A stretch of DNA of 64,000 nt from NCBI GenBank assembly GCA_051362555.1, contig CM120640.1, positions 1,550,001-1,614,000 of the forward strand, given 5' to 3'. Under the pieces are notes generated by a model, which ran no database searches, was not told the DNA's origin, and saw only the letters and a list, made by a program, of their open reading frames with translations. The first letter of the stretch is position 1. Each line of letters opens with the position of its first letter. Shown here in pieces: positions 13,304 through 57,489 of this stretch. The DNA comes from Lingula anatina (lineage: Eukaryota > Animalia > Brachiopoda). The position numbers were made by a program, and so were the translations under genes.

Positions 13304-16300
13304 ATGTCAAAGAGAAGAACCAACACAGAGCAGCACAGACCATTAAAGCGTATGAAGGATGAAGGCAGAAGTGACAATGATGATGATGACGGGGACATCA
13401 TGGACCAGAGTCAGCGGCCTGATTTCAGGACTGCCAGCATGGGGGTGAGGAGGGGGGGGGAGGGGCAGTGACTCCTTCACTTTGGTTGAAACAGTCTTGA
13501 TTAATCAACTTCAAAGTCAGCCGTTTTTAATGCAAAACAATTAGTGCAAAAAAATTTGTACTACAGGCTCGCAGAGAGCATTTTCAGAGAGGGGGGTCTT
13601 TTTCTGAAAATAAGTGTACCATTTACCTAGAAACCTCATGTGCTTAGCTCAAAATTTTACCCAGGACGGAATGTTCCTAGCAAAAAGGGCAGTCTTTAAC
13701 TAATTCCCTGGACATTACTGTGTCATCTAAAATGATTTAGACCTTATTCCATGTTTTCAGTATTGTTATATATGAGTACAGTATTTATTTTCACATGTGG
13801 CTGTCATTCCAGGAAGAGGCAGATATGGGAATTATTGAGAGGATCCAGTTGAAGAATTTCATGTGTCATACCCGCCTGGACTTCCCTTTCTGCCCAAACA
13901 TCAACTTCATCACTGGAAACAATGGCAGTAAGTGACACAATGGGGTCAGATCAGTTGGAAGATTTTATAAACTGAAACCACACTTTTCTTTGGCTGATGA
14001 CAGGGCTTGACATTAAGGGTGGCCCACTGGCCCTGGGCCACTGAAAACCAACCTAGGGCCATTGAATCGATGGGGTCACTGGCCCAAAGACCAAGTAAAA
14101 TGTCATGTGTCAAATCATCCTTGCAATATTTACCCATATCGCGGGCCAGTATCGAAAAAAGTTAGTGTCAAGCCCTGGATGATGGCAAGCTTATATTGCA
14201 CTTAAATTAATTAAAAAATTGTCTCTTTTCCTTGCTGCTGTCTATTATGTCTTTGGTGCACTACAGTAGCATAAGGGCCTTACCATAGTATTCTTCTTCT
14301 ACTGAACTGATATTGCCAAGAGTCAAATTTTTTCCCTCCATTTCTACTCAATTGATTGAACTCAAAAGAGTTAAGATAAGGTGGTGTTGCTGTTTCCATC
14401 GTTTTTATGGGATGTTAAATATGAAAAAGCTCTGGTGGATGGGAAAGATGTGATGTGATACAGGGAAGATACTTTGGAGGGCCCATTTAAAATTATCATA
14501 ATAGCTTAAAATGTTTAACTGCTCAAAGATTAAAATTACATATCTGAGAAATTGTTAGTTTTTCCTCATTGAAAAGATGGAGTCATAACAATATTATAAT
14601 CTTCCTTCTCCTCCAGGTGGTAAGAGCGCCATCCTGTCACAAATCTTATGCTATCATGAGTCTTAAAGGCAGATGCATGTATCTTAATTTTTCGTTCTCT
14701 CCCCCAGGTGGTAAGAGCGCCATCCTGACAGGGCTGGTAGTGGGCCTGGGGGGAGGGGCCAAGGCCACCAGCAGAGGAACGTCTGTCAGAGGATTCATCA
14801 AGAATGGAAAACAGTAAGGATATATTTCATGAAAGTCTTGGTAGTGCTAGCAATTTTGTTCGCTTAGCCAAATCACCATTTTTTTGTCATTGTCATTTGG
14901 TTATTCAAATGGTTATAATTTGACTAAAACAAATCAAATCAAGCCCTTTTTGTTTAGCCACTTTAAGCCAGTTTTAGTTAAATTGACAAATTTAGCGCTA
15001 CCCCAGAAAGAGATATTTGTAATGTCCACATGCTCACTGGTAATGTTTACATAAAAATCCATTAAAGTTTTACTTAAACTTGACATTGAAACTTAAGTGT
15101 TTCTTGTAGCCATGGGTATTTCTCGAATGTAAAAGAGTGGCACTTTTATTTATTATTTAAAATATTCATATAATTTCAATTTTAGGAGTGGTGAGGTTAT
15201 TATCAAGTTGAGAAACAGAGGTTCTGAAGCCTTTAAACATGACCAATATGGAGACTCCATCATAATTAAGCGAACAATGAAAGCTGTTGGGGGATCTGCC
15301 TACAGGCTGGAAAATGCTGAAGGTAACTTGGTTTTCACCTAACACAGCCGGTGATACTTACCAGGAGTTGGTACCACCTCTCTGATCTAATTTTCCATGC
15401 TTGTTTTGAACTTTACTACTCGTGTTGTTTTGAGCTTTGTTGTATAGATATATATCCATGTAATCAGGGATTGCAAATTCTTTTGAAAGATTTCCTGCAT
15501 ATATATGCCATTCTTTGTTTTCTTGTTCATTATACGAGTGATTTAGTAACAAATTTTGTTCCTCCAGGTAAACTGGTGTCCAATAAGAAAGAGGAACTTG
15601 ACCACATTGTGGACCACTTCAACATCCAGATCAACAACCCAGTGGCAGTGCTGAACCAGGACACCAGCAGAAACTTTCTCCACTCCAAAAACCCCAATGA
15701 TAAATATAAGGTAGTTTGAGACATTGATAGGTATTTTTGGCAGTCATGTATGCATCATTTTGTCATGATAAATGTTATGTGTTACATATTTATGCTTCAT
15801 TAGATTTGTAAGTTGTCTCTTACACCACCCTAGCATCTATTAATGTTTATTGATAAAATGCAGTTTAAATTTTATTTTCTGAAAGTTACCAAGGCTTTGT
15901 TGAAAATATTTCCTGAAATTGTGCCTGATACGTAATGCCATGAAGAAAGAAGTGTCAGAAAGTTGCTATTTCCGAATCTGCTTCAGCCAAATTACACTCT
16001 GTTTCTTTTATTTTCTAGTTCTTTCTGAAGGCCACCCAGTTGGAGCAAATGAAGCAAGACTACTGCAGTATTACCGAGCAGATGGAAATCACCAAAGGAA
16101 TCATCTCAACCAAAGAAACCGTAAGTCTAAGAGCATCTTTGTACAAGGTAATATACTGTCTATCTTGGATGGAAGTCAATATACAAATAAAACTATGGCT
16201 GTGTGTTTGATATGACATCACATGACGTGATATGATAAGAAAACTTATAGAGCATAAATACTGAGATATTTTACATACAGTATGTTAAGATATTAATACA

Positions 16301-19300
16301 GAAATGTAGGAGGAGTGAGGTTCACTGAGGGCAGGGAATACCTTTTGCGTTCACGGTTCTGTGTGACTGGCCTTATTTTTCGAGCGTGACGCATTATTTG
16401 AGGCCAATATTCTGCGTGAAATGTGATTCAGGAATTCTTGGTGATTGGCCTGAATATATCTTGGTGATTGGTGATTGACCTGTTTTTATCTGGGTAGTTG
16501 GTGATTGGGGGGGTGGGGGGGTATTCCCTACCCTCTTCAGAGGTACATTGGGTAGCAGTTTCTTAATCTTGAGGTCTTGTCAATTTCTGTGCAGACTGTC
16601 CCCACCCTCCACGCTGAGGTGCTGGAGTGGGAGAAGAAGTTCAAGGCCGTCCAGAACTGTGACGACCTCAGGGGAAAGATACAGGCCTTGAAAAACGAGA
16701 TTGCCTGGGCCATTGTTATCGAATGTGAGGAGGTCAGTCAGCCATTTTGTGAAAAGAAGAATAAAGGATTGAATATTTTCAATAAGTAGATAAGATATTA
16801 AAATGCATCAGGTAATACATATAGTGCATTTCATATATTACTTGACTACATTAATCAGTCTTTTCAGTGTAGGACTTACAATGGATGAATAAAAGGTTAT
16901 CCATTTTCATTGGTTTCTAAATCTTACTTAACAATATGTATTAGCAGCATACATTTAAAATGTGTATTTCGAAATACAATTATAAAACAAAGTATCATTA
17001 TACTATAGTCTGTTGAATGCAATTATGAAACAAAGTATCATTATGTTATATTCTGTAATATCATGTTTGATATTGTATTCAGAGCCTGAAGCCCCTCACC
17101 AAGGCACACAGGGTAGAAGATGCTCGCACCCCAAAGTTTCAGCAGAAAGTGGATGAGTGTCAGGTAAGAAAAATGTTGGCTACAAATTATAAATTTATTT
17201 TAATTTCAAGGAGGAATGCACATGCAAGTTTGTATTAAGTAACATTTTTCGGTGTTTATCAAAATTTAGATTTGCATGTAAAAACGAATAAAGAGATACA
17301 TGTTTTCCACAACTGGAATAATTTAGTCGACTTTTTGGCTGACTTCAGGCCAAACTGGATGAGTGCATGATGGGACATAAAGAGATCCAAGACAAGCTGA
17401 AGACCTACAGCACCGAGGCACAGAAATTAGTGCCGCAGCACGCAGATGCCAAAAAGGTCCTCAGTGAAAAGAAAAAAATAGTGCGAGCAGTACAGGTATG
17501 TGGTGGTTGGTTATTAACATACTGTGAATAATATTCTGGAATAGTGCTTGGAATTATATACTTTGTTTTATTTTAGCCAAATTTGATAGAAATAGCCAAA
17601 TCACAATTTCAGGCAAGTTACTCAGCCATTACCCACAGTATACTCTCACAGCAACATGAACTACTAAGCTACGTGTATTCCAACTTTACCCAAGTACTTT
17701 ATGTTATGAGGGGGCATACCAGACAGTTAAGTTGATAACACTGACTGCTCCTTGGCATAAATCCTACAGTGATAGATTTATCCTGCTGGCCAATTACTTT
17801 TCATCTGAACACAGCTTTAGATGTAGCAAGATGTGATTTTATTCCATTTTCCTATCTCTACAGATATGCTTTTGACAATTTTTAAAAAAGTGAAGTAGTC
17901 ATGTACTTTAAAGTTATCAAAGTGATAATTTGTCATTCTTCTAGCTGGAAGAAAGGAAGATCCAGAGCGAATTACGGACAGTGACCAAGGACCGTGACCA
18001 AACCCTGGAGCGGATTAATGAAATCAGAAATAGGTAAGTGTGGATGAAAGCAGACATTTTGAAAACTTCATTGTAGCTTAGCATTTAGGCTGACAGTTGT
18101 GAAAAATTTGCTGGACACAAGGGTTTTTTTTTTTTTTTTTTCGTAGGCCTGGCTAAATTTGAAAATCACTACCCCTGTAACACAATTTGAAAAAAAAAAG
18201 ATATTTTTTCCAAATTTCAAATGGTGAACAGTATATATTTTGAAGAAAATCCCATCTTTTCTTAGTTTAAGATTATTTGATTTAAAAAAGATTAAAAAAG
18301 TAAAAAGGTGAGTGTCAAGTTAGCCCAGTAGTAGTGATCACAAGCAGCCACCATTGGCCACCTGATGTGATCTGAGGTTTATACCTAAGCTGCTTTAGGC
18401 TCAGTAGGCTGATACCACTGAGCTATGGCTCACCCTGGAAAATACTGCTGATATCTAATATCATCAATCTACTGACTTGTGGTGCAATACAATGAGGAAG
18501 TGATGTCATTTAGATTGTTAGTTTGTCCAGTGGCCACTAGATGTCACCATGTGTAGAGTGGTGTAGTTTGACTTGTCTCCACCAGATGTCAGCAGTGTAC
18601 AGCACTTCTTGGATTTCACAACACAGTAAGTATATTGATATAGATAAAACATTGCAATAGTTATTGAAGGTGAGCAGTGGTCTAGTGGAATAACCACTGA
18701 GACTAAAGCATTGGACTGCTCCCCATACAAGCCCTAACACTAAGGTGGGGAAATCTACTGGACTGACTTGACACTCACCTTTTTTTTTTTTTTTTTTTGT
18801 CATCTCTAAACACACATCTTTAATTAGAATGATTTTAGTTGAAAAGACAAATAGTTTCAAAAAAAGTCAAAAATTAGTAAATGATGGTTATATACTTTAT
18901 TTGGATTTAAGGTTAAAGTAGTAAGATTTTGTAGAGCATGTAAAATTATAGTTTTTTTCTGATACAGTATTTCGAGCCTATAAGGGACATTGGGATTGTG
19001 CAAGGTCTTCATTTCCTCAGAACAAAATAAACTTCATTGAATTTTTAATGTAAATTTTTAGTAAACACTTATGCTTGAAAATGAAATAACTATTTTGGTA
19101 CTATTTATAATTGAAAAAGGAATGTTGATTAAGGTCAATCAAATATTTGATGAAAAACTGATAGAGATAAGTTATAAATTCTTCAAAAATGTTTGAATAC
19201 AAAAAAGATGTTAAGTTTTCCTAGCAGAAGCTGTAAGTAGCAGAATATTAAATGAATAAGTATGAAAATACCAATTATCAGTCAATTTATTGATGGGATG

Positions 19301-22300
19301 AGTGAATAAAATTTTTAAAAAAGTAAAAAGGTGAGTGTCAAGTTAGCCCAGTAGTAGTGATCACAAGCAGCCACCATTGGCCACCTGATGTGATCTGAGG
19401 TTTATACCTAAGCTGCTTTAGGCTCAGTAGGCTGATACCACTGAGCTATGGCTCACCCTGGAAAATACTGCAGATATCAAATATCATCAATCTACTGACT
19501 TGTGGTGCAATACAATGAGGATGTGATGTCATTAAGCTTGTTAATTTGTCCAGTGGCCACTAGATGTCACAACATGTGGAGTGTTGTACTTTGACTTGTC
19601 TCCACCAGATGTCAGCAGTGTACAGCACTTCTTGGATTTCACAACACAGTCAGTATATTGATATAGATAAAACATTGCAATAGTTATTGAAGGTGAGCCG
19701 TGGTCTAGTGGAATAACCACTGAGACTAAAGCATTGGACTGCTCCCCATACAAGCCCTTACACTAGGGTGGGGAAATCTACTGGACTGACTTGACACTCA
19801 CCTTTTTTTTTTCACCTTAAAATGATTTTAGTTGAAAATAATATCAAGTAGCTTCTAAAATGTCAATTTAGTAAATGATAGTTATAAATTTTACTTGGAT
19901 CAAAGGTTAAAGTAGTAAGATGTTTTTTGGAGCATATAAAATGATTTGTTTTTTCTTTGTGATACAGTATTTCGAGCCAATTAAAGTGACATCAGGATGA
20001 GCAGGGTCTTCATTTCCTGAAAACAAAATAAACTTCATTGCATGTATTTTTTTTTTTTTACTGCACATTAATGCTTGAAAAAGAAATAATTATTGGTTCT
20101 AACTTCTAATAATAATTGAAAAGGGTTGCTCTGATTAAGAACAAGCAAATATTTGATGAAATTCTGATCAAGATAAGTGAGAAATTCTTCAAAAAATACT
20201 TAAATAAAAAAAAATGGGTGGGGTGAGGTCTTTATTTCCTTAAAACAAAAAAAATTAACTTCATTGTATTTTTAAAGTGATTTTTTTACTGAACATTTAC
20301 ACTTGAAAATGAAATAATTTATGTGGTACTTATAATAATTGAAAAAGGAATGTTGGTTAAAATCAATCAAATATTTGATGAAGTTCTGATAGAGATAAGT
20401 GATAAAGTTTTCAGAAATGCTTAAATAAAAGTGGGTGTTGAGTATCCCTTGCAGTAGCTGTTAGTAGCAGAATGCTAAATGAATAAGTATGAAAATACCA
20501 ATTTTCAGTCAGTTTATTGATGGAATGTGTGAATAAAATTGTTAAAAATATTTTTTTAAAAAAGTAAAAAGATGAGTGTCAAGTTAGCCCAGTAGTAGTG
20601 ATCACAAGCAACCACCATTGGCCACCTAATGTGATCTGAGGTTTATACCTAAGCTGCTTTAGGCTCAGTAGGCTGATACCACTGAGCTATGGCTCACCCT
20701 GGAAAATACTGCTGATATCAAATATCATCAATCTACTGACTTGTGGTGCAATACAATGAGGAAGTGATGTCATTTAGATTGTTAGTTTGTCCAGTGGCCA
20801 CTAGATGTCACCATGTGTAGAGTGGTGTAGTTTGACTTGTCTCCACCAGATGTCAGCAGTGTACAGCACTTCTTGGATTTCACAACACAGTCAGTATATT
20901 GATATAGATAAAACATTGCAATAGTTATTGAAGGTGAGCCGTGGTCTAGTGGAATAACCACTGAGACTAAAGCATTGGACTGCTCCCCATACAAGCCCTT
21001 ACACTAGGGTGGGGAAATCTACTGGACTGACTTGACACTCACCTTTTTTTTTTTCACCTTAAAATGATTTTAGTTGAAAATAATATCAAGTAGCTTCTAA
21101 AATGTCAATTAGTAAATGATAGTTATAAATTTTACTTGGATCAAAGGTTAAAGTAGTAAGATGTTTTTTGGAGCATATAAAATGATTTGTTTTTTCTTTG
21201 TGATACAGTATTTCGAGCCAATTAAAGTGACATCAGGATGAGCAGGGTCTTCATTTCCTGAAAACAAAATAAACTTCATTGCATGTATTTTTATGTACAG
21301 ACACAGATGTGTCTGTACATATTGCCATCACCTGCGTCTGTCGTCGCCGATGCCGATGCCGATGGCGATGCCGATGCCGATGCCGATGCCGTCGCCGTGC
21401 ACTTTCCTTGTAAACACGATAAGTGGAAGGCAGTTTTACTTTTTGGCTTTATATTTACAGAGCTGATGAATATTCATAAAACGCAGGTCAAGTTCGAAAA
21501 TCAGCATGATCGGGCCATTATTGTAGAAGTTATGCTGTTTTTTCACTTTTCAGCATATTTTTCACATTTCCTCAGATTCAATTCTTAGGCATGTTAACAG
21601 TCTCATTATTAAACTAATAAGATACGTAAAAGTTTTTGTTTGACATTTCCTGCATCTTTACAACATTGTTAGTTGATTTTTTAAAAATGATGGTAAACTT
21701 GTTATCGTGTATTGTGTAATAAAGTGTCAAAAATGGAAATAAACTCATATCATTGCAGTTTGTCAGATTCAATCATTCACTATGTTCAGAATCTCAGAAT
21801 GGAAGAAATTGGACATTTTACACTGCTCTATTGATATTTTTCCCATCTCATCAATTTTCTTAGTTGATCATATAAAAATGGCAGTAAACTGTTAATTTTG
21901 TTTTATGTTAAAAATGGTTAAAAATGGAAAAAAAAACATTTCAGAACAGTGCTGTCTTGTTTACATTTTGGCATTTTCAAGTTGTGACTTAGAGGTTCCA
22001 TGGGCCTGAAGACCTTTGCTAGTCACATTTTCTGAATATCCATGATACTAATATTTTATTATTAAAAATTGATGGTCATTATGCTGTTAAACATTATGTA
22101 ATATTGCATCAAAATTTGAAAAAAACCTATTTTGGGCACTGCTCCCATGATGACCATTTAAGAAAAACCATGTCACTTACTGTTCTCAAACAGTACAGTA
22201 AATATATATATAGATGTGTCTGTACATATTGCCATCACCTGCGTCTGTCGTCGCCGTCATCGCCGTCGCCGGTGCCGTGCACTTTCATTGTAAACACGAT

Positions 22301-25300
22301 AAGTGGAAGGCAGTTTTACTTTTGGGCTTTATATTTACAGAGCTGATGAATATTCATAAAACGCAGGTCAAGTTCGAAAATCAGCATGATCGGGCCATTA
22401 TTGTAGAAGTTATGCTTTTTTTTCACTTTCCAGCATATATGCAACACTGTAAACACATTCCAAGGAAAACCGATAGGCCTGTTGTCATGAAACTCACAGG
22501 AGTAATCTATCTTACTAAAACGCAGGTCAAGTTCGAAAATCGGCATGATCGGGCCACTATTTTAGTAGTTATGCTGTTTTTTCATTTTTCAGCATATATG
22601 CAACACTGTAAACACAATATAAGAAAAACAGATAGGCCAATTGTCATTAAACTCACAGGAGTGGTCAATCTTACTAAAATGCAGGTTGAGTTCGAAAATC
22701 AGCATAATCGGGCCATTATTTTAGAAGTTATGCTGTTTTTTCACATTTCCTCAGATTAAATTCTTAGGCATGTTAACAGTCTTATTGTTTTACTAATAAG
22801 ATACATAAAAGTGTTTGTTTGACATTTCCTGCATCTTTACAACATTGTAGGTTGATTATGTAAAAATGATGGTAAACTTGTTATCGTGTATTGTGTAATA
22901 AAGTGTCAAAAATGGAAATAAACTCATATCATTGCAGTTTGTCAGATTCAATCATTAACTATGTTCAGAATCTCAGAATGGAGGAAATTGGACATTTAAC
23001 ACTTTTCTATTGATATTTTTCCCATCTCATCAATTTTCTTAGTTGATCATATAAAAATTGCAGTAAACTGTTTATTTTGTTTTATGTTAAAAAAGTGTTA
23101 AAAATGGAAATAAATCCATGTCAGAACAGTGCTGTCTTGTTTCACATTTCCTCAGATTCAATTCTTAGGCATGTTAACAGTCTCATTATTTAACTAATAA
23201 GACATGTAAAAGTGTTTGGTGTACATTTCCTGCATCTTTACAACATTATTAGTTGATTATGTAAAAATGATGGTAAACTTGTTATCGTGTATTGTGTAAT
23301 AAAGTGTCAAAAATGGAAATAAACTCATATCATTGCAGTTTGTCAGATTCAATCATTCACTATGTTCAGAATCTCAGAATGGAAGAAATTGGACATTTTA
23401 CACTGCTTTATTGATATTTTTCCCATCTCATCAATTTTCTTAGTTGATCATATAAAAATTGCAGTAAACTGTTTATTTTGTTTTATGTTAAAAAATTGTT
23501 AAAAATGAAAAAAAAAAACATTTCAGAACAGTGCTGTCTTTGTTTACATTTTGGCATTTTTAAGTTGTGACTTTGAAGTTCCATGGGCCTGAAGACCTTT
23601 GCTAGTCACATTTTCTGAATATCCATGATACTAATATTTTATTATTAAAATTGATGGTCATTATGCTGTTAAACATTATGTAATATTGCATCAAAATTTT
23701 AAAAAAATATATTTTGGGCACTGCTCCCATGATGACCATTTAAGAAAAACCATGTCACTTACTGTTCTCAAACTTACAGGAAAGAAACATGGGACTAAAA
23801 TACAGCTTCAGTAGGCAATGCAGTCTGTTTGGTAATTCTTACTGCCAGTTAAACGGTTTCACATATTGGCATTTTCAAAGTGTGACTTTGAAGTTCCACG
23901 GGCTTGTTTATTATTGCATCAAAATTGGCAAAATGACCTCTTTTGCATCCTTTTTTCTGTTATTTTGTCTGTACATTTGACAGCTTTGCTGCCTTGTTTT
24001 TTTTTACTGCACATTAATGCTTGAAAAAGAAATAATTATTGGTTCTAACTTCTAATAATAATTGAAAAGGGTTGCTCTGATTAAGAACAAGCAAATATTT
24101 GATGAAATTCTGATCAAGATAAGTGAGAAATTCTTCAAAAAATACTTAAATAAAAAAAAAATGGGTGGGGTGAGGTCTTTATTTCCTTAAAACAAAAAAA
24201 AATTAACTTCATTGTATTTTTAAAGTGATTTTTTTACTGAACATTTACACTTGAAAATGAAATAATTTATGTGGTACTTATAATAATTGAAAAAGGAATG
24301 TTGGTTAAAATCAATCAAATATTTGATGAAGTTCTGATAGAGATAAGTGATAAAGTTTTCAGAAATGCTTAAATAAAAGTGGGTGTTGAGTATCCCTTGC
24401 AGTAGCTGTTAGTAGCAGAATGCTAAATGAATAAGTATGAAAATACCAATTTTCAGTCAGTTTATTGATGGAATGTGTGAATAAAATTGTTAAAAATATT
24501 TTTTTAAAAAAGTAAAAAGATGAGTGTCAAGTTAGCCCAGTAGTAGTGATCACAAGCAACCACCATTGGCCACCTAATGTGATCTGAGGTTTATACCTAA
24601 GCTGCTTTAGGCTCAGTAGGCTGATACCACTGAGCTATGGCTCACCCTGGAAAATACTGCTGATATCAAATATCATCAATCTACTGACTTGTGGTGCAAT
24701 ACAATGAAGAGTGATGTCATTTAGATTGTTAGTTTGTCCAGTGGCCACTAGATGTCACCATGTGTAGAGTGGTGTAGTTTGACTTGTCTCCACTAGATGT
24801 CAGCAGTGTACAGCACTTCTTGGATTTCACAACACAGTCAGTATATTGATATAGATAAAACATTGCAATAGTTATTGAAGGGAAGGTGAGCCGTGGTCTA
24901 GTGGAATAACCACTGAGACTAAAGCATTGGACTGCTCCCCATACAAGCCCTAACACTAGGGTGGGGAAATCTACTGGACTGACTTGACACTCACCTTTTT
25001 TTTTTTTTTTTTTTTCCATCTCAAAACACACATCTTTGATTAAAATGATTTTAGTTGAAAAGAATAAGAGCTTCAAAAATGTCAAAAATTAGGAAATCAT
25101 GGTTATACATGCTATTTAGAATAGAGTTTAAATGATGTTTTTTCTTTGTGATACAGTTTTTCTAGTCAATTCAAGTGAACGGGATGGGCCAGGGTCTTCA
25201 TTTCCCCAGAACAAAATAAACTTCATTGAATTTTTAATGTAATTTTTTACTAAACACTTAAGCTTGAAAATGAAATGATTATTATGGTACTAATAACAAT

Positions 25301-26133
25301 TAAAAAAGGAATGTTGATTAAGGTCAATCAAATATTTGATGAAATACTGATCGAGATAAATTATAAATTCTTCAAAAATGTTTAAAGTTTTCCTAGCAGA
25401 TTCTGTAAGAAGCAGAATATTAAATGAACAAGTACGAAAATACCAATTATCAGTCAATTTATTGAATTTATTGATGAGTGAATAAAATTGTTAAAAAAAA
25501 AAAAAGTAAAAAAGTGAGTGTCAAGTTAGCCCAGTAGTAGAAATCTGCTGGACTGACTTGACACTCACCTTTTTTTTTTAAATCTCAAAAGTGACATCTT
25601 TAATTAAAATGATTTTAGTTGGAAAGAATATTGGATCACTTTTAAAATTAAAAAAATAATTAAGTTTTTTTGCACATCATGTTGACTTATATGCAAACTA
25701 TATATTGTAAAACTATTTCAGTGCCCAAGAAGACCATGAGTCAGAACGGATAGCAAGGGAGCAGAAGATCCGGGGTCTCGAAGAGGAGCTGAACGGCTGC
25801 CAGGGGAGGAGGAAGACCACAGAACACGAGGTGGAACAGTTCAGGGCGGCTGTCACCAAGTACAAAGAGGAAGGATACAGACTCAGGTAAAATAAAAACC
25901 AAGTTCTCAGTTCTGAGGTGAATTTGCATTTGAAAGGGTCAAATATTTTGAACCACTGCAAAGCTTGCCGTCTAATCCGCCAATAGACATTGACTAGATA
26001 TCCCGTCGGGGGAAGTATTCAAGTGGGTCGACCATATTTGACCCTGGGACTAGTTAGTCCCCTATTCTGAATTGGGCCTAAGATTATAACAGTTAAATGT
26101 GTTATTTGCTCACATAAACTATCAAGTGTATGG

Positions 26134-29700: not shown

Positions 29701-32700
29701 TAAGGGACAAGCTGAAGGAGACCCAGGCAGAGGTTCAGAAGGCAGAGGAGGAGTTCAAGCAGATTGATGAGAAGATGAGGTCCATAGCTGATGGAGCTGA
29801 GCCACTCAAGGTAGCTTTTTTGTTTTGTTCACAAGTTTTAAACCAGTGTTTTTTTCTTTAAGGCAAATTTGAAAGTTATTGTATCAGTTTTTAAAATGAT
29901 GAGTTGATTTTTGGAAAGTTGTTTCACCAATTTTGAGTGAAGTTTTATTGTAAGTGGAATTGATAATACATGAACCTAGAGAAAAGATTGAATTGTGATG
30001 CATTCCTCGCACTGGGTCTTATTCTCTTTCAGGAAGAACTTGCTCATGCTGAAACCCAGATAGAGGTTGCGAAGTCAAACAAAAAACATTACGATGGCAA
30101 GATGAAGGAACATGAGAAAAAATTGAGCGATATTAAAAAATTGGTTGAAGCTAAAAAGAAGGAAATAGAGGTAAAGTATCAGTAAAATTTATTTCTTTTG
30201 TTAGTTAATAAAAATGTGTCTAAAAATTTTAAAATATGAAAACAACCCAGCTTGGACCTAACAGATTGCAGATATTTTTATGTACAGACACAGATGTGTC
30301 TGTACATATTGCCATCACCTGCGTCTGTCTTCGCCGATGGCGATGCCGATGGCGATGCCGTCGCCGTGCACTTTCCTTGTAAACACGATAAGTGGAGGGC
30401 AGTTTTGGCTTTATATTTACAGAGCTGGTGAATATTCATAAAACGCAGGTCAAGTTCGAAAATCAGCATGATCGGGCCATTATTGTAGAAGTTATGCTGT
30501 TTTTTCACTTTTCAGCATATTTTTCACATTTCCTCAGATTCAATTCTTAGGCATGTTAACAGTCTCATTATTAAACTAATAAGATACGTAAAAGTTTTTG
30601 TTTGACATTTCCTGCATCTTTACAACATTGTTAGTTGATTTTGTAAAAATGATGGCAAACTTGTTATCGTGTATTGTGTAATAAAGTTTCAAAAATGGAA
30701 ATTAACTCATATCATTGCAGTTTGTCAGATTCAATCATTCACTATGTTCAGAATCTCAGAATGGAAGAAATTGGACATTTAACACTGCTTTATTGATATT
30801 TTTCCCATCTCATCAATTTTCTAAGTTGATCATATAAAAATGGCAGTAAACTGTTAATTTTGTTTTATGTTAAAAATTGTTAAAAATGGGAAAAAAAACA
30901 TTTCAGAACAGTGCTGTCTTATTTACATTTTGGCATTTTCAAGTTGTGACTTTGAAGTTCCATGGGCCTGAAGACCTTTGCTAGTCACATTTTCTGAATA
31001 TCCATGATACTAATATTTTATTATTAAAAATTGATGGTCATTATGCTGTTAAACATTATGTAATATTGCATCAAAATTTGAAAAAAACCTATTTTGGGCA
31101 CTGCTCCCATGATGACCATTTAAGAAAAACCATGTCACTTACTGTTCTCAAACAGTACAGTAAATATATATATAGATGTGTCTGTACATAATGCCATCAC
31201 TTGCGTCTGTCGTCGCCGTCATCGCCGGCGCGGGCGCCGTGCACTTTCATTGTAAACATAAGTGGAAGGCAGTTTTACTTTTTGGCTTTATATTTACAGA
31301 GCTGATGAATATTCATAATACGCAGGTCAAGTTCGAAAATCAGCATGATCGGGCCATTATTGTAGAAGTTATGCTTTTTTATGTACAGACACAGATGTGT
31401 CTGTACATATTGCCATCACCTGCGTCTGTCGTCGCCGATGGCGATGCCGATGGCGATGCCGATGGCGATGGCGATGCCGTCGCCGTGCACTTTCCTTGTA
31501 AACACGATAAGTGGAGGGCAGTTTTACTTTTTGGCTTTATATTTACAGAGCTGATGAATATTCATAAAACGCAGGTCAAGTTCGAAAATCAGCATGATCG
31601 GGCCATTATTGTAGAAGTTATGCTGTTTTTTCACTTTTCAGCATATTTTTCACATTTCCTCAGATTCAATTCTTAGGCATGTTAACAGTCTCATTATTGA
31701 ACTAATAAGATACGTAAAAGTGTTTGTTTGACATTTCCTGCATCTTTACAACATTGTTAGTTGATTTTGTAAAAATGATGGTAAACTTGTTATCATGTAT
31801 TGTGTAATAAAGTGTCAAAAATGGAAATAAACACATATCATTGCAGTTTGTCAGATTCAATCATCCATTATGTTCAGAATCTCATAATGGAAGAAATTGG
31901 ACATTTAACACTATTCTAATGATATTTTTTCCATCTCATCAATTTTCTTACTTGATCATATAAAAATTGCAGTAAACTGTTTATTTTGTTTTATGTTAAA
32001 AAAAAGTGTTAATAAAAATGGAAATAAACCCATGTCAGAACAGTGCTGTCTTGTTTTATGATACTGTGGGTGAAAAGTTAACAGAAAAGCCAGAACTCTC
32101 TTAGGAAGATTCTATAAGCTCTCATCAAGAGGTTTCCCACTATCCCCAGTTCATTTGACTAATGTGATGCAGTGACCTAGAAATGTGCAACTAGAGACTG
32201 TTGCTAAGAGTGGAGAGATTAACAGAAAAGCCAGAACTCTCTTAGGAAGATTCTATAAGCTCTCATCAGGAGGTTTCCCACAATTCCCAGTTCATTTGAC
32301 TAATGAGATGCAGTGACCTAGAAATGTGCAACAAGAGACTTTGTGAAGGAGGCAATAGGTTTACAGAAGAAGCTTGGTAAGTTGTTAATTTTAGTTTAAT
32401 GTTAGTATTTAAGAGGAGTTATTTATACTACTATCAGAAACAATTAAGGATCAAAAATAAAGCAAAAAATCCTTATCAACAGTTGAAAAGATCATACATA
32501 CATAACATCAGACACTGAAGATGTTTATGTCAAATCTGTATCCTAAAGCTCTATAGTATTTGAAACTGTGCATAACTTTTAGAGATGTGCACCAACACTA
32601 TTCACGACTAAAGAAAGTTAAGAATAGCTATGTGAAAAATGTCATTAAATGGTAATGGTGTCTTGCCTTTCTGAATTGATGCCACATTTTTTTATTGGGG

Positions 32701-35700
32701 AGAATTTGCCTTTTATTGATTCAAAGGATAATGCATTTGTTTTATGGTGTTGAACAGCATGTGTACTTTGCTCCAAAAGGGGGTCAAGGGTTATCCTGTG
32801 TTACAGTACTAGTAAGTACTAACATTACTGGTGATATTTTAATATACTTGTAGTAACCATAGTTTCTTCTCAACATTGTGGCTGATAAAAAGTGAAGGAG
32901 TATGTTTGTGATATAAAGAGCATCAATGCTAGATTGAATAATTGTAAGTTGAATTTATATAATATTATATTTCTTCCAGCTCACAGTTGAAGTTAGCAGC
33001 AATTCAGTTGAAGCTTCACAGAATAATAAGTGTGGCAATAGAATGTAAGTATCTTTGTTTAAATCATTGGCATTTAAGTCTCACGATCATCAAAAAACCA
33101 GAAATATGCATTTGATGTAGATAGCTAAATACTAGAATTCAAGTATATAGAAAAGGCAATACTTTAACATCTAGGCAGATACTAAATTGCAGGCAGTATG
33201 TAGGTTGGTTATTGAAGCAACAGAATAGATGGACCACTGACAAGCAGATCTGTCCACTAAATATGTTAAATTCCTTAATGGTCTTCTTGCCCCCACACGC
33301 CACAACTGCAGCAGCCTAATAATTAAACCCGGACTGAGGTTAAATCGGTTTAAGGGCACATATGGAGGCGGTGAGACCTTCAGGATTCAGAGCTATCACT
33401 TTTAAAGGCCTACTGCGCTCTAGGAACACACAGCGTTCACTGCTTTTTTTACAGTATAAAAACTATAAATCCACGTCAAAAAATTGTTCTTTTTAAGTTT
33501 TAGAGAGAAAAGATGAGATTTAGATGAGAAAATTCTGATTGGTCAGTTTCTAGTGACGTAACCTGGGTAGTAGCTTCCCACAGCTGTACTAGTAATAGTA
33601 TATACTATGCAGTAGGTGACTAAACATCCAGGTGTCAGAAAAACAAAATGCCGCAAAGTTGTGTTGCTCCCGGGTGCCGTAATGTAGGTTACGATAAGAA
33701 AGACATCTGCTATTATATCCTGCCTGCGGATGCCGCAAAACGTAAAATTTGGCTCAATTCTCTGAAGTTAAAAAATCGCAGCACAGTGTCAAAACACGCG
33801 AGGATCTGTAGCGACCACTTCGAGCCGGAATGCTTCGTACGTGACTTGCGAGCTGAATTGTGCGGTGGAAAAGCACGGAGAAAACTAAAAGATGATGCTG
33901 TACCCAGTATATTCGATTTTTCGGAGTACCAAAATGCGACAGTAAATGCCAGAGCGCTGCCGACGAGAGTCTTACCTGTAGGATGTGTGCATGATGCGGC
34001 CGTCGAAAGGAAGAAGAGAGCAGCTTCTAGAGCCCAAAAAAAGTTCTTAGCAGAATTACGTTGTCGAATTTTCTGGTTATTTTAGTGAAAACTTTAATAT
34101 TAACATGATAGTGGACTCAAATTTTTACTCGACATACTGCTGCACTGATCATGTGTAAGGCGTAAGTAGCGAGGTAAGTTGCAGAGGTGTGAAATGTAGT
34201 GTCTGATGCTATCAGTCCGATATCTTTGGCCTTTTGTCCACTGCCCTGGCTCTCCCGGAATGACACGGGTAAACTGCACGGGTGTGAGAAATAATGTTAG
34301 CTGTCACACCTGCATTATAAGGTAACTTTCTCTTATCAGTCGGGATAAGAACGTTCAGCCGACGCGACAGATGGGCATGTGTGAAAAACTATGTTCGCTG
34401 CCCTGATTCCAAACCTTTACTGTTAACAAAGTTTTGGTGTATTTTGTTGGTTAATAAATGATAACCACGTAGGGAATTAATCTTCTTTTGTGTATCCATC
34501 TTCAAAAGTTTGAATTTATAAATGATCATGTAGTAATCAATTGCGTGTATCGCTTTTAGTTTGCACTGCTAGCAAGCGGATAGCTGAATCGGATATGGCT
34601 TTCTGAGCCTCGACGCAAGTGACGTCACTCGCCTCAAAGCGCCACCATGCGGGAGTATCATAAACTTAATTCACACCTGCATAAAATCGGCTTTAAAAAC
34701 TAAATAAACGTAAGAACTTTTTTTCATTACTCAAAAATGACTTTTGGGCACCTAATGGATAGTTTTAACCCGTTTTTTCATCACAGTATACCTTTAAAGT
34801 GGGGTCAGCCCTATTTAGTTGGCGGATCTGCTAGTTGGCGGATCATATTGTTTTGAATGGGACCTACATTGCACCATATATTTCAATATCTTCAATATCG
34901 TCTATTTTTTATTATTGACTCTATTGATCATATTCTGTTCATTTTACCTCTGTAAAATCTACTGAACATTTTATATGGATTTTAGACTGTAAATAAATAT
35001 TACTATTATTAATATTATTATTATTATATGCTATATATTTTTGGAGTAACCATGGTTTCTTCTCAACAATGTGGAGCTGATCAAAAGTAAAGGAATATGT
35101 TTCTGATATAAAGAGTATCAATGCTAGATCAAATTATATTCAGTTGAGTTTATATAATATTTTATTAGTACCACCAGAGTATACGCTGGCGGTACTCATG
35201 GTTTTAGTCCTGACCCGTCTCGTACAGCTTCGCCGGCTCCGCTGGCTCCGCAGTCGAGCGCCGGAAACAAGTCACCGTTACCGCTTCTCCTCCTAGACCT
35301 CCAGGACCTGTGTCCCCACCTCTTGGATTTAGGTCACATATAATCTCAACTTGAACACCCTGGTTTTTTTGTCTCTGTCGGTGCATTGGCCTGGGCGTGA
35401 CACTTGTTGAAACGCACCCTTGTCAAAATTTTTGAAAATTCAAGGCTAAATATCTCCCAAACCAAAGGAATTATGGGAAAAATTACTAAAGACGTCGAAC
35501 CGAAAGTCAAATGTAGAGATTCCAAATATGCCCTTGGATTTGACTATTGACCTTTTTTTCAAGGTGAAACAAGCCAAAATTTTCTAAAAATGGGAATTTT
35601 CTGCAAAAAAATATTTGTTTGTGCTATTTTTTGGAAACTACACAGATCTAAGCTCTCCTGTTATAGTGAGGGGTTACAATTGGGGACTCCTTTCATCTTT

Positions 35701-41409: not shown

Positions 41410-44400
41410 ATGTGTAGTTGTGTAATCTGTAATAACAGAAATATGCTGGGCACAACAAATATTATGCTTTGCAAGGAATCCAATATTAGATTATTCTGGC
41501 TCATTTAAAATGGAATAAAACATTGTATCTAAGGATCCGTTCTCATTAAAAATCCAAATTCCAAAAATCCATTGGAGGTATCTAGTATTTACAGTCTGTG
41601 TCCTGAATACCCCGTGTTATAATTAACTTGTATTTTGTAAAACAACATCAAAAGGCATATGTGAATACATTCTTCTGTCTGCTTTCTCTGCTGTATATAA
41701 ATGGGACTGATAAATATTAGTAGGTTAGATAAGTAGTCCAAATTAACCATCAGTTTAAATGTAGTTTAAGGCTCTTTTATTGTTGATGAAGTGATTAATT
41801 TGTTTTGTCCATTGGCATGTCAACTTCATTTCTGTTATACAAGTAACTAGTAGAGGTGGATTACATGTATTACTGGGGATGCACACTCCATCGACATGTA
41901 CCTTTAATTACAGAATCAAAACATCAGTAAATGATGTTTTTGTTTGATAATGTTTTATTTTCAGTGCACTTGTTAGTCTTGGTAGTTTGTTAAGGGCCTC
42001 TTAAGCAGTTGCACTCGAAAGAAACTGTTTACAACTCTCTCAGTTTCTATTATAGTTTGCCCCTTCCAACCATCTTAATGGATATGTATAACTTTTAGCC
42101 AATAAATATGTATTTTTTCATATTTCTAGATGCCTATATTGAAAAAACAAAGCATGGTCCAAAGAAGGGCACATCAGAAGAAGATGATCGAGAAAAGTCG
42201 CAAGAGGGTGACTAAGGATGCCACGTCTACTATTGTGCCTGCTTCGGCAGGCACGCCCACCTTGGTGGGCTCTGTGAAAAACTGTGAAATTACTGTGAAA
42301 AACTGTGAAAATACTGTGAAAAACTGTGAAATTACTGTGAAAAACTGTGAAATTACTGAGAAAAGCAGTGAAAATACTGAAAAAAAGCAGTGAAATTACT
42401 GAAAAAAACTGTGAAATTACTGAAAATACTGAGATTACACAAATTACTGAAAAAAACAGTGAATTTACTGAAAAAAAAAGTGAAATTACTGAAATCACTG
42501 AAAAAGGTGAAAATACTGCAATTATTGAAAAGACTGAATTTCCTGAACACACTGAGATGCCCATTGCTTCAGATGTTACTGTTCATGCAGCTTATACAGA
42601 TGCTTCAGATAAGACAGATGCCACAGTTGACACAGCCTATCCTGTCAGTTTGAGTGCCACTGATGCCCCTGGTCATTCAAGTAAGTCTATAATATATTCA
42701 GAACATTTTTCACCATCATATAAGTCTGTAAAATCTAACATGCCAGTCAACCCAAAGCTATCAACGGTACCCCACAAATTAAAGAAAACATCACAACAAT
42801 CAGTAGTTTTTCCTGAAATTCAAAAAAATGAACCCAATATGGTAACATTAAAAACATCCTTAAAACCTTTGGAAAAAAGTGTTCAATATTCAAAAATGGG
42901 TTCAATGAAGAAGGTACCATTAACAAAACACACTGGTAATACCATTACCTCTGATTCTATTTCATCCATTTTTGATAAAACAAATTTGCACAAACCCCAT
43001 TTGAAAAGACTACATGATGAAATGAAGAGGCAGTTAAAATGGACAGAAGACAAACAACAAAGCAAAATTGACGCAGTGAATAAAACTTTTTTGGATACCT
43101 CACTTACGGGAACCAGTAGCACTGACAGAAATATATTGAAAAGAGAGAAAAATCAGGATGCAACTTCTTAGATCAGGATGCAACTTCTTAGATCTGATCC
43201 ACAGTACAGGAAAGCTGAACAAAATGCTCAAAGAATAACACGTTCTCAGTCCGATGTGAAAAAGCAAATTCAAAAACAAAAACACTTGAAAAGGTCTGAT
43301 CCAGAGTACAGAAAAAACGAACAACAATCTCAGAGGCTAAAACGTTCTCAGGTCGATGAGAAGAGCAAAATTTTAAAGTACAATCAGTTGAAAAGGTCTG
43401 ATCCACAGTATAGGAAAAGTGAACAAGAATCTCACAGACTAAAACGTTCTCAGGTCGATGAGAAGAGCAAAATTTTAAAGTACAATCAGTTGAAAAGGTC
43501 TGATCCACAGTATAGGAAAAGTGAACAAGAATCTCGGAGACTAAAACGTTCTCAGTTCGATGAGAAGAGCAAAATTTTAAAGTACAATCAGTTGAAAAGG
43601 TCTGATCCACAGTATAGGAAAAGTGAACAGGAATCTCAGAGACTAAAACGTTCTCAGGTCAATGAGAAGAGCAAAATTTTAAAGTACAATCAGTTGAAAA
43701 GGTCTGATCCACAGTATAGGAAAAGTGAACAAGAATCTCGGAGACTAAAACGTTCTCAGGTCGATGAGAAGAGCAAAATTTTAAAGTACAACCAGTTGAA
43801 AAGGTCTGATCCACAGTTCAGGAAGCGCGCACAAGAATCTCAGAGACTAAAACGTTCTCAGGTCAATGAGAAGAGCAAAATTTTAAAGTACAATCAGTTG
43901 AAAAGGTCTGATCCACATTATAGGAAAAAGGAACAAGAATCTCACAGACTAAAACGTTCTCAGGTCGATGAGAAGAGCAAAATTTTAAAGTACAATCAGT
44001 TGAAAAGGTCTGATCCACAGTATAGGAAAAAGGAACAAGAATCTCAGAGACTAAAACGCTCTCAGTCTGATATGAAGACCAAAATTCTGAAACACAAGCA
44101 CTTGAAAAGGTCTGATCCTTATTACAAAGTAACTGAGAGAAGTAAAAAAAGGTTAAAAAGATCTGATCCAGAATTCAGAAAACACGAAAGAAAATCTGAT
44201 TCATTTGCTAAATGTAATAAGAGACAGAAAATCAATACCAATCTTCAACAGTTAATACAACAATTCCACAAAAAAGTTGCTGAAGGTTGTACTTACACAT
44301 GTTGTATATGTCAACAACTTTGGTACAGACATACTGTGATAAATTCAGAGTCTATCATGAATTTAGAAAATAATGCAGTTAAACATTGCAAAGAAACTGG

Positions 44401-47400
44401 TGATTTATTTGACAGTAATTGGATATGTTTAACATGCTCTTATCATTTGAAAAAGAACAAAATTCCTCCATGTGCTATGGTGAACGGCCTGTCGTTTCCA
44501 GAAAAACCCAGCTTCTTGGATTTAAAACCTTTAGAGTGGAGATTAACTAGCCCAAGGTTAGTTTTCATGAAGCTTCAACAAGCTCCACGTGGAAAACAAT
44601 ACAAATTAGAAGGAAATGTTGTAAATATACCAGCAGATGTTACATCCACTGTAACAAAGTTACCAAGAACTGAGGCAGATAGTTCTACAATTAAAGTTCA
44701 GCTCAAAAGAAATGTGAAATTTAAAAATTATGCATATGCTCAGAATGTAAGACCTAACAAAGTACTTGAAGCTGCAGCTTGGTTAACTGCAAATGGAAAA
44801 TTATATCAAGAAAAGGGAATAACTGTAGACACAACATGGAAATTAGCAGAGAATCCCTGCAGCTCTGACACATTTGAACAAACAAAAAAAGAGCATACAA
44901 CTGTTAATAACTTGAGTGAGGAACAAATGCAAAACTTACTGAAAGAATATGTTTGTGTTGAATGCCCTGCTAATTGTAAAAACATTCAATTTTCTGAAGA
45001 AGGGCACCTTATGGATCAGGATGGTGATTTTGCAGATGAATTCTATGTCATTTTAGACAAGCCTTATAAATATGATCCATCTGTTGATGTTGACAAATTT
45101 GTGGCTACTATTCAAAGTGAAAGAAAAAGTACTGGTTATTCAAAACAACCACACACTTTAGGTGTACCTGCATTCAAATCACAAGAGAGAGGCAGATCAA
45201 GATATCGCAAGAAGATAAATACAATCAGATCTTCTAGTAGAGAAGGAATTGAAAAACTCATTGCTTATAAGCGCCACCATATTCTAAGAAAATATAAGCA
45301 TTTGAAACTGAGTTATTATGGTTTGTTCAAAAGAAAAAAACAAGGAAGAACATGGTACTCAAGATACTTCAGAACTGTAAAGAAAATTCGACACAGAGTA
45401 AGAAATGTTTCACACTTGCAAAAGGAGTTATCATACTTACAGCAAAGACATATATTACCTACATATTGTGAATCTGAAAATGAGGTACAACACCTACGAA
45501 CTGACAATACTTTATTTCATTTTATGCCTGTAGATGCCCTTTGGCAAGAGAAAATAACCGAAAAACTAAACTTACCATTAAAGCGTCCACACAATTGGCC
45601 TGAAACTGGTAGTGATATTCTCTTGACAAATCCTAGGCAGTTGAAGAAAGTTATTGGAGATGGAAATTGTTTTTTTCGAAGTTTGTCTTTTACCATCACT
45701 GGTTCTGACATGTTGTATGATAATAATCACATTATACTTAGAAACAAAATCGTCAGTCATATGAAGCAGCTTGAGTATGCTTTTGCAAGTAGTATGTTAG
45801 GTGATAATGACAGCACCTCAGCAAGTTATATTAGACGAACAGGCATGGATAGTGTAAATGTTTGGGGTACTGAAACAGAAATACTTGCTGCAGCACATCT
45901 GCTACAAACAGACATCTATGTCTACTGCAAGCCTGGTGACTCTTGGAAATGGTTAAAGTATTCAGCTAACTTTCTTGACCAGAACAATCATTCACACGAG
46001 ACAGCTATTTACCTACAAAATACAAACTCTGATCACTATGATATCGTGCAGAGTGTATGCGACTCATCATTGTCTGCTGATAGCATAAACAAGAACTTGC
46101 TGCAAACAAAGAAGGTAACACGTGCTAAATCAGATATAAGTAAATGCTTACAGGCAAATGATATTACAGATTGGGACGAAATTGATGAGGAAGAAATGAA
46201 ACCTGGTATAAGAGATACAATGTTAACAGGTAGAGACTTCTTAGAAGACACAGAGAGAGAGAAAATTTACTCTTTTGCACCTGGTCAAGAAGGTCATCCA
46301 CTCAGCATATTCAAAGATGAACACTGTGAGGAACTGGCTTTTCCTGAAATATTTCTTGGCAATGCAAGGCCTGCAAATCAAAACAGACTTGTCCCTGTAC
46401 ACTACAGTGACATTTGCAAGTCGGAATTAAGACGCAATGACAGAAGAGCAGCAATGTGTGTTGACAACATATTTTTTAAAGCAAAAAAACTGCAGATGAA
46501 AAGATTGATTGGGTCAGCTTCTCTTGCTGTAAGAAAACATAAAACTAGTGGAAAAAAACTCACTGCAGGAGATTTGAAACAGTCTGGAGCCATTGAGAAA
46601 CTTTTACATTTTGATGAAGGTTATACATTCCTAAAAGGAGTACGTGGTTCCCCCCCATATTTTGAGAAAGCAAAAAAAGATTTATTTGCAATGATACGTC
46701 AGCTAGGAGCAGCAACTTTTTTCTGCAGTTTTTCTTCTGCTGAAACAAAATGGAATCATTTACTCAGGACTCTTGGTCAATTAGTAGATAATAGACATTA
46801 CTCAGAATCAGAGTTGGAACAACTAAGCTGGGATGAAAAATGTCGCTTGATTCAGAGTGATCCCATTACTTGTGCACGGCATTTTGATTATCAAGTCCAG
46901 TGTTTGATACACCACTTTTTGTGCCACAAAGTAGCACCATTAGGTAAAATACAAGATTTTTTTTACCGTGTAGAATTTCAACACAGAGGTAGTCCACATA
47001 TTCACATGCTGCTTTGGATAGAAAATGCACCTATTTATGGTGTCAATTCTAATGAAGACATCATACACTTTGTTGATAGCACAATTTGCTGTAGCAAACC
47101 AAATGAAGATGATCCAATAAAAGAACTCGTATCTTATCAGACACACAAACATACAAGGACATGTATAAAGAATTTGAAAAAATCTTGCAGATTCCATTTT
47201 CCACAGCCTCCGATGAAAAAAAGCATAATTCTGAAACCCCTTGAAGATACTTCACAGAAGAAAGAATATGCAAAAGTTTGGACAAAGATTCATGATATTA
47301 TAAATGACAAAGATTTTACATATGTCAGTCTAACATTTGAAGAATTTTTAAATAAAGTACAAGTGTCAGAAGAAGATTACATTTTGGCAGTGAGATCTAC

Positions 47401-56400: not shown

Positions 56401-57489
56401 ATAGGTAGGTCCTGTTAGATCGATCTAGGTACGGGAACCCAGTCTTAGAGACTTTGCGTAGTTCCTATGAACAGCCACTGACTGCCACCTACTTCCTTTT
56501 CATAAATTGGTCTAGGTTGGGATTAAAACTGGTTTACAAAGAAAAGGGTGCTACGGCTCATTTCTCTTGCAAATATGTAGCCAATGGATACTATCAGTTT
56601 ATTTCAGCCTAAAAATTACTTTTTGCCAATATCTTTAATCTTAAAAAAAGATTAATTTGTTAGAATAAAAATGATTTGATAAACAGTTTTGACGCGATGC
56701 TTTTAAAAGAGGGGGTCAGCAGCAGTCGGTGGTTTTCTTTGGCTATTTGCCCTGTTCTGCATTGTGTTTGTGATAATTTTTTTATTATTATTATTGTTAT
56801 TAGCTACTACAGGATGTCATGGGGACCCGTCAACATCAGTTTATAGAGTTTCGCAAAATGATTGCTTTGAGAGCCAAATACTATTTCATCGTGATGTTGA
56901 GCAATCGAAGTTATGTTGGAAAGATGACATTTAATCACAAAAAGGAAATTCTCGAGCTGTCTGTAAGTGATGAAAAAGTTGTCTCTGAGAGACTAGAATA
57001 CTGATACTACAGCCATTGTCTCTATATTTGCTAGATTGCTTGCCTGCTTGCTTGAAGTAGTTTGCCCTCTTAAGTCTACCAAACCATTCCCTGGGATTTG
57101 CATGTCATTTGCCATTCAAAATGAGAAGAGCCTATTACTAGCTAGGCCATGACCTAAATGTGGCAGACCTACATGAAAGGAAGAGCGCTTAATCCTGTAA
57201 TGGTCTCTCTGCCTCTCACACGCCTCCCCACGTGTCGTCCCTGAAGGGACACTGTAATTAAATCTCGACTGGATTCAACCGGTCGAGGGACGACGCGTGG
57301 GAGCCATGTGAGAGACAGAGAGACCATTACAGGATTGAGCGGTCTTCCTTTCACGTAGGTCTGCCATATTTAGGTCATGGCCTAGCTAGCACTCAGATCT
57401 TCTCTTTCTGAATGGCCTCTTTAACTAAATAATCACTTGGGCTTTGCTGAAAGTACAAGGTAATTCTAAAGATAGCCTAGAGCCTTTAT

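Follow-up and report, generated by a model that had tools for sequence, protein, structure and literature searches.

In the parts of the literature drawn on here, vertebrate Y RNA presents CAGUGG, CCACUG and ACUUGAC followed by a stem and U4 (PMC4619022), the same order of elements as in the units described below, and a Y4 fragment reads UAGUGG and then UUAUCAG (PMC6096425). The Ro60 site is a 7-bp helix with a bulged C (PMC4726728), and it is mainly the GGUCCGA strand that Ro60 contacts (PMC4201824). The upper-stem motifs are GUG-CAC in Y RNA and UG-CA in sbRNA, and sbRNAs support DNA replication initiation in an in vitro assay (PMC4450293). Nematode sbRNAs keep GGUCCG; most of the C. elegans sbRNA reverse primers given in the same source carry GTCAAGT, and at this site the CeN71 primer has the same ten letters as the M units of this study (PMC8477234). 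According to passages of a 2015 review, ROP-1 precipitates did not contain CeN72 or the 17 other C. elegans sbRNAs, most animals have a reported Ro60 homologue, and Y-like RNAs outside vertebrates are reported in nematodes, two insects and amphioxus only (PMC4726728); in part of another source, homology searches are said to miss Y-like RNAs (PMC5006418). Vault RNAs, as described in sections of two papers, pair their 5' and 3' regions around a variable centre and have internal boxes together with a CRE-like element upstream (PMC7058938), box B being a defining element (PMC7058938, PMC11012908).

In a 64,000-nt stretch of Lingula anatina DNA (the window), an initial annotation had placed eight candidate small RNA genes in divergent pairs at 18302..25579, and all eight were found there. 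They form four cassettes, each with a minus-strand unit M (128 nt up to the T-run), a spacer of 234-238 nt and a plus-strand unit P (111 nt). In cassette 1, M1 (18302..18434, minus), a candidate 128-nt RNA gene with T5 recognized by sequence and fold, is followed by spacer 1 (18435..18668), whose sequence reads as two upstream regions back to back, and by P1 (18669..18784, plus), a candidate 111-nt RNA gene with a T-run and with A rather than C at +8. Comparison of the cassettes placed M2 at 19325..19457 (minus; identical to M1), P2 at 19692..19807 (plus), M3 at 20566..20698 (minus; identical to M4, with three C-to-U differences from M1), P3 at 20933..21048 (plus; identical to P2), M4 at 24514..24646 (minus) and P4 at 24885..25000 (plus). 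Thus, the M units start at 18434, 19457, 20698 and 24646 and the P units at 18669, 19692, 20933 and 24885. Every arm reads outward into T5 or longer, at both outer cassette ends, as had been claimed. The claimed CUCACC end failed for M3 and M4, which end CUCAUC, and the 5' strand, given as GAGCCG or GAGCCA, departs in P1, where CAG replaces CCG at +7..+9 (GAGCAG).

The array lies within one 7.7-kb intron of SMC6 (18034..25721, plus strand, GT..AG), because four RNA reads (run X5) exit at 18033 and resume with the exon letters at 25722; splice sites and exon matches agree, all cassettes are enclosed, and the intronic placement given earlier was borne out. Six further GT..AG joints were obtained from RNA reads upstream of the array. 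SMC6 is on the plus strand of the window, so the P units run in its sense direction and the M units against it. The translated exon downstream of the array was 100% identical, over 91% of its length, to the SMC6-like protein P0002 of Lingula anatina, and the SMC6 exons from 13816 to 59411 were tiled by the SMC6-like Lingula protein together with a snail homolog. P0002 (361 aa, partial) begins at the exon directly after the array (25722-59411 region); the exons at 28695-56968, matched by the snail homolog, find no counterpart in it. Residues of about 924-973 of snail SMC6 are matched twice, at 56000-56149 and 56816-56968 (40% and 61%), which we read as a putative duplicated or alternative exon. 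An SMC6 exon acceptor with its first codons also occurs twice, at 14611-14637 and 14703-14728, 92 nt apart, a short duplication that offers a possible alternative splice site. One large SMC6 intron holds an open frame of 2485 codons (43172-50629, plus) with Helitron_like_N, PIF1, OTU and endonuclease domains, apparently an intact Helitron-type element, and a 153-codon frame with a THAP domain (33624-34085, plus).

The cassettes stand in a tandem unit of about 1.0-1.2 kb, and their linkers are homologous only to one another. Since the flanks are common to the copies, the copies arose in tandem. Cassette 3 is a mosaic (M3 equals M4 and P3 equals P2, with 0 differences each), matching cassette 4 on the left and cassette 2 on the right, so only three cassettes are independent; it would thus be the product of a recent unequal exchange or of the assembly of two haplotypes. 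The eight units comprise only five distinct sequences. At 25508..25575, the sequence retains a remnant of a fifth cassette, in which the M and P 3' ends are joined and the starts and the spacer are deleted. Between cassettes 3 and 4 lies an inserted 2.7-kb dispersed repeat outside the family (21288..23990), known from its copies at 30275-32058 and 52260-54639 (76-96%); this repeat family, with three clusters in the window, contains internal repeats of 159 and about 400 nt and a GCCGAT microsatellite. A covariance model of the units, run across the window, matched the eight units and the remnant only (next best E 0.09), and no further cassette copy was found elsewhere in the 64 kb. This anatomy could be explained by a head-to-head duplication of one gene together with some 60 nt upstream of it, followed by tandem amplification of the resulting pair in units of about 1 kb; a later, recent unequal exchange would have produced cassette 3 and one internal deletion the remnant.

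The units have changed less than their surroundings. Cassettes 1 and 2 differ at 0 of 128 positions in M, 3 of 111 in P, 13 of 234 in the spacer and 46 of 218 in the right flank; for cassettes 1 and 4 the counts are 3/128, 2/111, 4/233 and 43/224. Cassettes are thus 0-6% apart where the flanks are about 20% apart, a difference that could reflect selection or gene conversion. Homologs from outside were sought in run X1 with cassette 1 as the query (85% likeness), and the resulting contigs behave like DNA because the sequence continues through both flanks. A 369-nt contig aligned over the whole of M, between the T-run and -77 (about 89%; 19 other letters, 4 gaps) and was unlike the window beyond both alignment ends. 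All 11 listed changes within the RNA (9 letters, 2 gaps) fell at +54..+90 and none at +1..+53 (P 0.002, with the variable region defined from the M/P alignment); 2 of the 19 other letters lie outside this listing, possibly in the 3' stems. When the nine letters are placed on the M fold, four are unpaired and two convert G-U pairs to A-U, a further two together replace G-C by A-U at pair 77-88, for which M3 and M4 show the intermediate G-U, and the last one breaks a helix-end pair; so little damage had a simulated chance of 0.03-0.08. Disruption of the intra-arm stems at neutral rates, named earlier as speaking against the genes, was not the pattern of the listed changes, which were loop-confined and partly compensatory with one helix-end pair broken; the basis for covariation is two paralogs and this one outside contig. 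Upstream of M, the contig is almost unchanged at -43..-77 and changed at -18..-42, and four of its changes hit part of the upstream element common to M and P. A second X1 contig matched the first 65 nt of P only, with other sequence on both sides. A third (contig 2 of the run) matched only 33 nt (18561-18593) around the second CTCF-like motif described below, and its depth of 256 means that a high-copy sequence carries a word like that motif.

The pairing pattern held throughout the family. A 6-bp end stem and an 11-bp inner (upper) stem gave 17 pairs that hold in all five distinct sequences (85 of 85 cells), with G-U as the sole non-Watson-Crick pair. The claimed C-G to U-A switch in the 11-bp stem, with only G-U exceptions, was confirmed (one two-sided and five one-sided changes), and RNAalifold added a twelfth pair with a two-sided change, U-A/A-U at columns 21-103; 46 of 500 shuffles reached the covariation score, a weak result with five distinct sequences. 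Against shuffles, the outward strand of M folded at z -5.4 and -3.9 and the other strand at z -2.0 (M1), whereas P reached z -1.9 to -2.3 versus -1.6 and -1.9 on its other strand, with the first G missing in the P folds. As modelled, M is very stable on the outward strand and P modestly so. The predicted fold comprises the 6-bp end stem (pair probabilities 0.96-1.0), an open region with ACUUGAC, an upper stem of 11-12 bp and a variable loop with one paralog-specific hairpin. Two details of the earlier description stood in part: the M stem variants are G-C to G-U in two of three cases, the third sitting in a bulge, and AG(C/A)CUAAAG is common to both paralogs, but the shared hairpin proposed for it is absent from the M minimum-energy fold and has two consensus pairs.

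In both paralogs a second, local partner at +26..+39 is available to the 5' strand of the upper stem. M favours the long-range form (-54.5 vs -45.8 kcal/mol for the local one) and P1 divides 89 to 11 between long-range and local, whereas in P2 and P4 the two forms are about equal, with an ensemble share for the long-range one of about 49% at 37 °C and 31% at 25 °C. This alternative weakens the claim that P takes a Y-like fold; the local helix of P itself has GUG-CAC. The local partner may reflect a switch, an intermediate in folding or the vestige of an internal duplication.

How far the units resemble Y RNAs and sbRNAs depends on the element compared. ACUUGAC is present in all eight units and both remnant ends, and by chance it fell within the last 30 nt in 0.14-0.15% of shuffles; a descriptor built from Y/sbRNA words matched only the eight units in 64 kb. 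At 111 and 128 nt, with paired ends and oligo-U, the units fall in the Y RNA size class of about 80-120 nt, M being slightly long. Of the proposed Y/sbRNA element order, the YAGUGG/CYACUG stem and the 3' ACUUGAC agree with published sequences, but the Ro60 motif and an exact GUG-CAC fail. GGUCCGA is absent from all units, so the canonical Ro60 helix is not formed, as the initial annotation had cautioned; its place is taken by GAGCCA, GAGCCG or GAGCAG, with two pairs at most. The 11-12-bp upper stem is present, but its GUG pairs with UAC. Neither the sbRNA lower stem (GGUCCG opposite UUGAC with a single bulged C) nor UG-CA in a 9-bp upper stem with G-C clamps was found, as UG pairs with UA, flanked by G-C pairs. 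At the 5' end of the loop, where sbRNAs have UUAUC, M has GUAUC (4/5) and P has AAUAA. At gathering level Rfam gave 0 hits over the 64 kb; relaxing the threshold to E 10 brought 5, 2 and 1 weak hits, all unrelated, and searches with single units still matched no Y_RNA, sbRNA or vault model. Membership in the Y/sbRNA family was not assigned because the Ro60 motif, GUG-CAC and Rfam all fail. In a metagenome scan the 3' pattern occurred at two loci only, L001 and L002, which we rejected as chance matches as they have neither the 5' strand nor a covariance model score; the 5' pattern gave 0 matches in viral contigs and 0 in prokaryote genomes.

Signals for transcription lie both upstream of and within the units. 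Positions -62..-1 of M (18435-18496) and P (18607-18668) are homologous (0 of 5000 shuffles reached the score, cassette 2), while -117..-63 are not alike (P 0.20, cassette 2). The shared 62 nt fit an upstream promoter element and, equally, simple descent from the inverted duplication. A type 3 promoter has a PSE and a TATA box at -32 to -25, this distance being taken from one passage of PMC4702372. P has TATAGATAAAA near -31, and M has no clear TATA box. What we take to be the A-box consensus is matched exactly at +10 in M1 (18415..18425, minus) and at the corresponding position of every other unit (18678-18688 in P1). These are the only exact matches in the window (8 against 0.29 expected, with a consensus narrowed after the units had been seen), and no unit contains any of the four B-box matches in the window. 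New relative to the earlier description are this putative A box at +10, which no B box accompanies, the local upper-stem partner and a pair of CTCF-like motifs in every spacer. The candidate A box is formed by the 5' strand of the 11-bp inner stem, and through it a vault-like or tRNA-derived reading stays possible. The CTCF-like motifs are 14-mers, two to a spacer and on the same strand, each a single letter away from what we take to be the CTCF consensus: putative motif 1 at 18534..18547 (plus; also 19557, 20798 and 24745) and putative motif 2 at 18579..18592 (plus; also 19602, 20843 and 24790). Spacers hold eight of the ten such matches in the window (0.16 expected; two independent).

In three long-RNA libraries (poly(A), oligo-dT and unspecified), of each of which 6-25% was read, SMC6 exons had a depth of about 1-7 and cassette 1 had no coverage; as short RNAs without poly(A) are lost from them, these libraries say nothing on unit expression. 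Position, copy structure, conservation, pairing potential and motifs were observed here, and from them we infer Pol III transcription of the units. The shared upstream element would set Pol III, perhaps aided by the internal A box; transcription would start at the G of GGUGAG and stop in the T-run, and La would bind the U tail.

Conservation relative to the flanks, the loop-confined and partly compensatory homolog changes and the shared upstream element support structured small RNA genes with oligo-U ends. Of the original proposal, an undescribed Y/sbRNA-like or new Pol III RNA family, the structured genes in divergent pairs are upheld, but Y/sbRNA membership was not borne out. Our main reading, to which we give a probability of about 0.5, is that the SMC6 intron harbours likely Pol III genes encoding a pair of paralogous RNAs (111 and 128 nt, each with a U tail in addition), which would be divergent Y/sbRNA-like RNAs predicted to work via the upper stem and not Ro60. 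That the units represent genuine small RNA genes, or copies recently derived from them, appears very probable; for their belonging to the Y/sbRNA lineage the odds look even, and we liken them to these RNAs, from whose stock they may descend, without filing them as members. As the 5' strand read by Ro60 is missing, Ro60-independent action as scaffolds, like that of most nematode sbRNAs, is predicted. We would guess, by analogy, that a nuclear partner reads the upper stem, the function in known cases being replication initiation. A bolder version, which we consider unlikely, would make them a lophotrochozoan branch of Y RNAs that dropped the Ro60 handle, in which an upper-stem strand doubles as a vault-like A-box promoter and also switches between local and long-range 11-bp partners retained in both paralogs, making a two-state RNA, and CTCF bridges the head-to-head pairs.

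A separate Pol III family, perhaps derived from a tRNA or SINE head, with the Y-like words a coincidence, is a possible but doubtful alternative. It would account for the failure of three Y/sbRNA features and for an A-box match that stays exact although 4 of its 11 letters differ between the paralogs; a visual comparison also shows the 5' 60 nt to resemble a human tRNA-Phe as printed in PMC11706605. In a panel of 118 distinct tRNAs from viral contigs, mostly non-animal and with tRNA-Phe genes added on purpose, tRNA-Phe was the best match for P, but likeness beyond the A box was not significant (P 0.21 for M and 0.13 for P). ARAGORN and Rfam found no tRNA, the units have no B box, A-rich tail or target-site repeat, and ACUUGAC is left unexplained. 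A tRNA-derived SINE or gene as such was rejected on homology beyond box A and on box B.

MITE and foldback elements have inverted ends and internally deleted derivatives, and they show target-site duplication and dispersed copies. That the cassettes are a non-coding element of this kind, with long imperfect terminal inverted repeats, tandemly duplicated and with no RNA function, seems improbable. The end inverted repeats (about 30 nt at 90-93%, about 70% further in) and a remnant that looks like an internally deleted element are in its favour; the 369-nt X1 contig could be one arm with another interior, and as DNA a whole cassette folds mostly arm to arm (61 cross-arm vs 30 within-arm pairs). 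However, no target-site duplication was found in the flanks of all five copies, which have A-runs on the left and T-runs on the right, and the 64 kb hold no further copy. Within-arm pairing is strand-specific (seven G-U states are independent, a pattern with a hand-calculated chance of about 1 in 128 were both strands equally likely), and the X1 homolog changes respect a hairpin found in M only.

Human vtRNA1-1 presumably has its A box at the same +10 offset as the units. A reading as divergent vault RNAs, with paired ends, an A box close to the 5' terminus whose partner is on the 3' side, a variable centre and upstream helpers, seems improbable. In its favour, the A box sits at +10, TGACATCA lies within the upstream block kept in the X1 contig and an M 9-mer just before the 3' stem strand is two letters off the B box; against it, box B is absent in all eight units, Rfam gives no Vault match and the 3' end is Y-like.

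Under the main reading, the brachiopod family could serve as a seed model for molluscs, annelids and phoronids. It would be a natural variant separating two Y RNA modules, with the upper stem and one Ro60-helix strand kept and the Ro60-read strand missing, and would test whether the Y/sbRNA replication role is general to bilaterians. If unrelated to Y RNAs, it would still be an unannotated Pol III RNA family. Our literature search, which lay outside the main subscription Y/sbRNA homology surveys, found no report of such RNAs in Lingula or molluscs, and terms such as ncRNA and Rfam are absent from the main text of a 2026 Lingula genome paper (PMC13121700).

Compared with known systems, the cassettes share inverted ends and an internally deleted derivative with MITE and foldback elements, but lack target-site duplication, are tandem within the window and carry strand-specific structure inside their arms. 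They resemble vault RNAs, as far as the cited sections describe these, in an A box within a stem near the 5' end, paired ends, a variable centre and a CRE-like upstream word, and differ in lacking the B box and in a Y-like 3' end (PMC7058938, PMC11012908). With vertebrate Y RNAs, in the parts of the sources used, they have in common the size class, paired ends, U tail, YAGUGG opposite CYACUG, variable loop, ACUUGAC before the end stem, clustered genes and conserved upstream sequence (PMC4726728, PMC4619022, PMC6096425). Unlike those Y RNAs, the units have no GGUCCGA, the 7-bp helix being cut to two possible pairs (C-G, A-U or G-U) and a 3-nt bulge, and they have GUG:UAC, an exact A box, intronic head-to-head pairs and no Rfam score. 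Nematode sbRNAs, in what the same kind of excerpts state, best keep the GGUCCG and bulged-C lower stem that fails in the units, as does the upper-stem UG-CA, and P lacks UUAUC (PMC4450293). In contrast, multiple copies, variable loops and ACUUGAC are shared with them, M has UCAGUGG and then UAUC, and sbRNAs are mostly not found with Ro60 (PMC4450293, PMC8477234).
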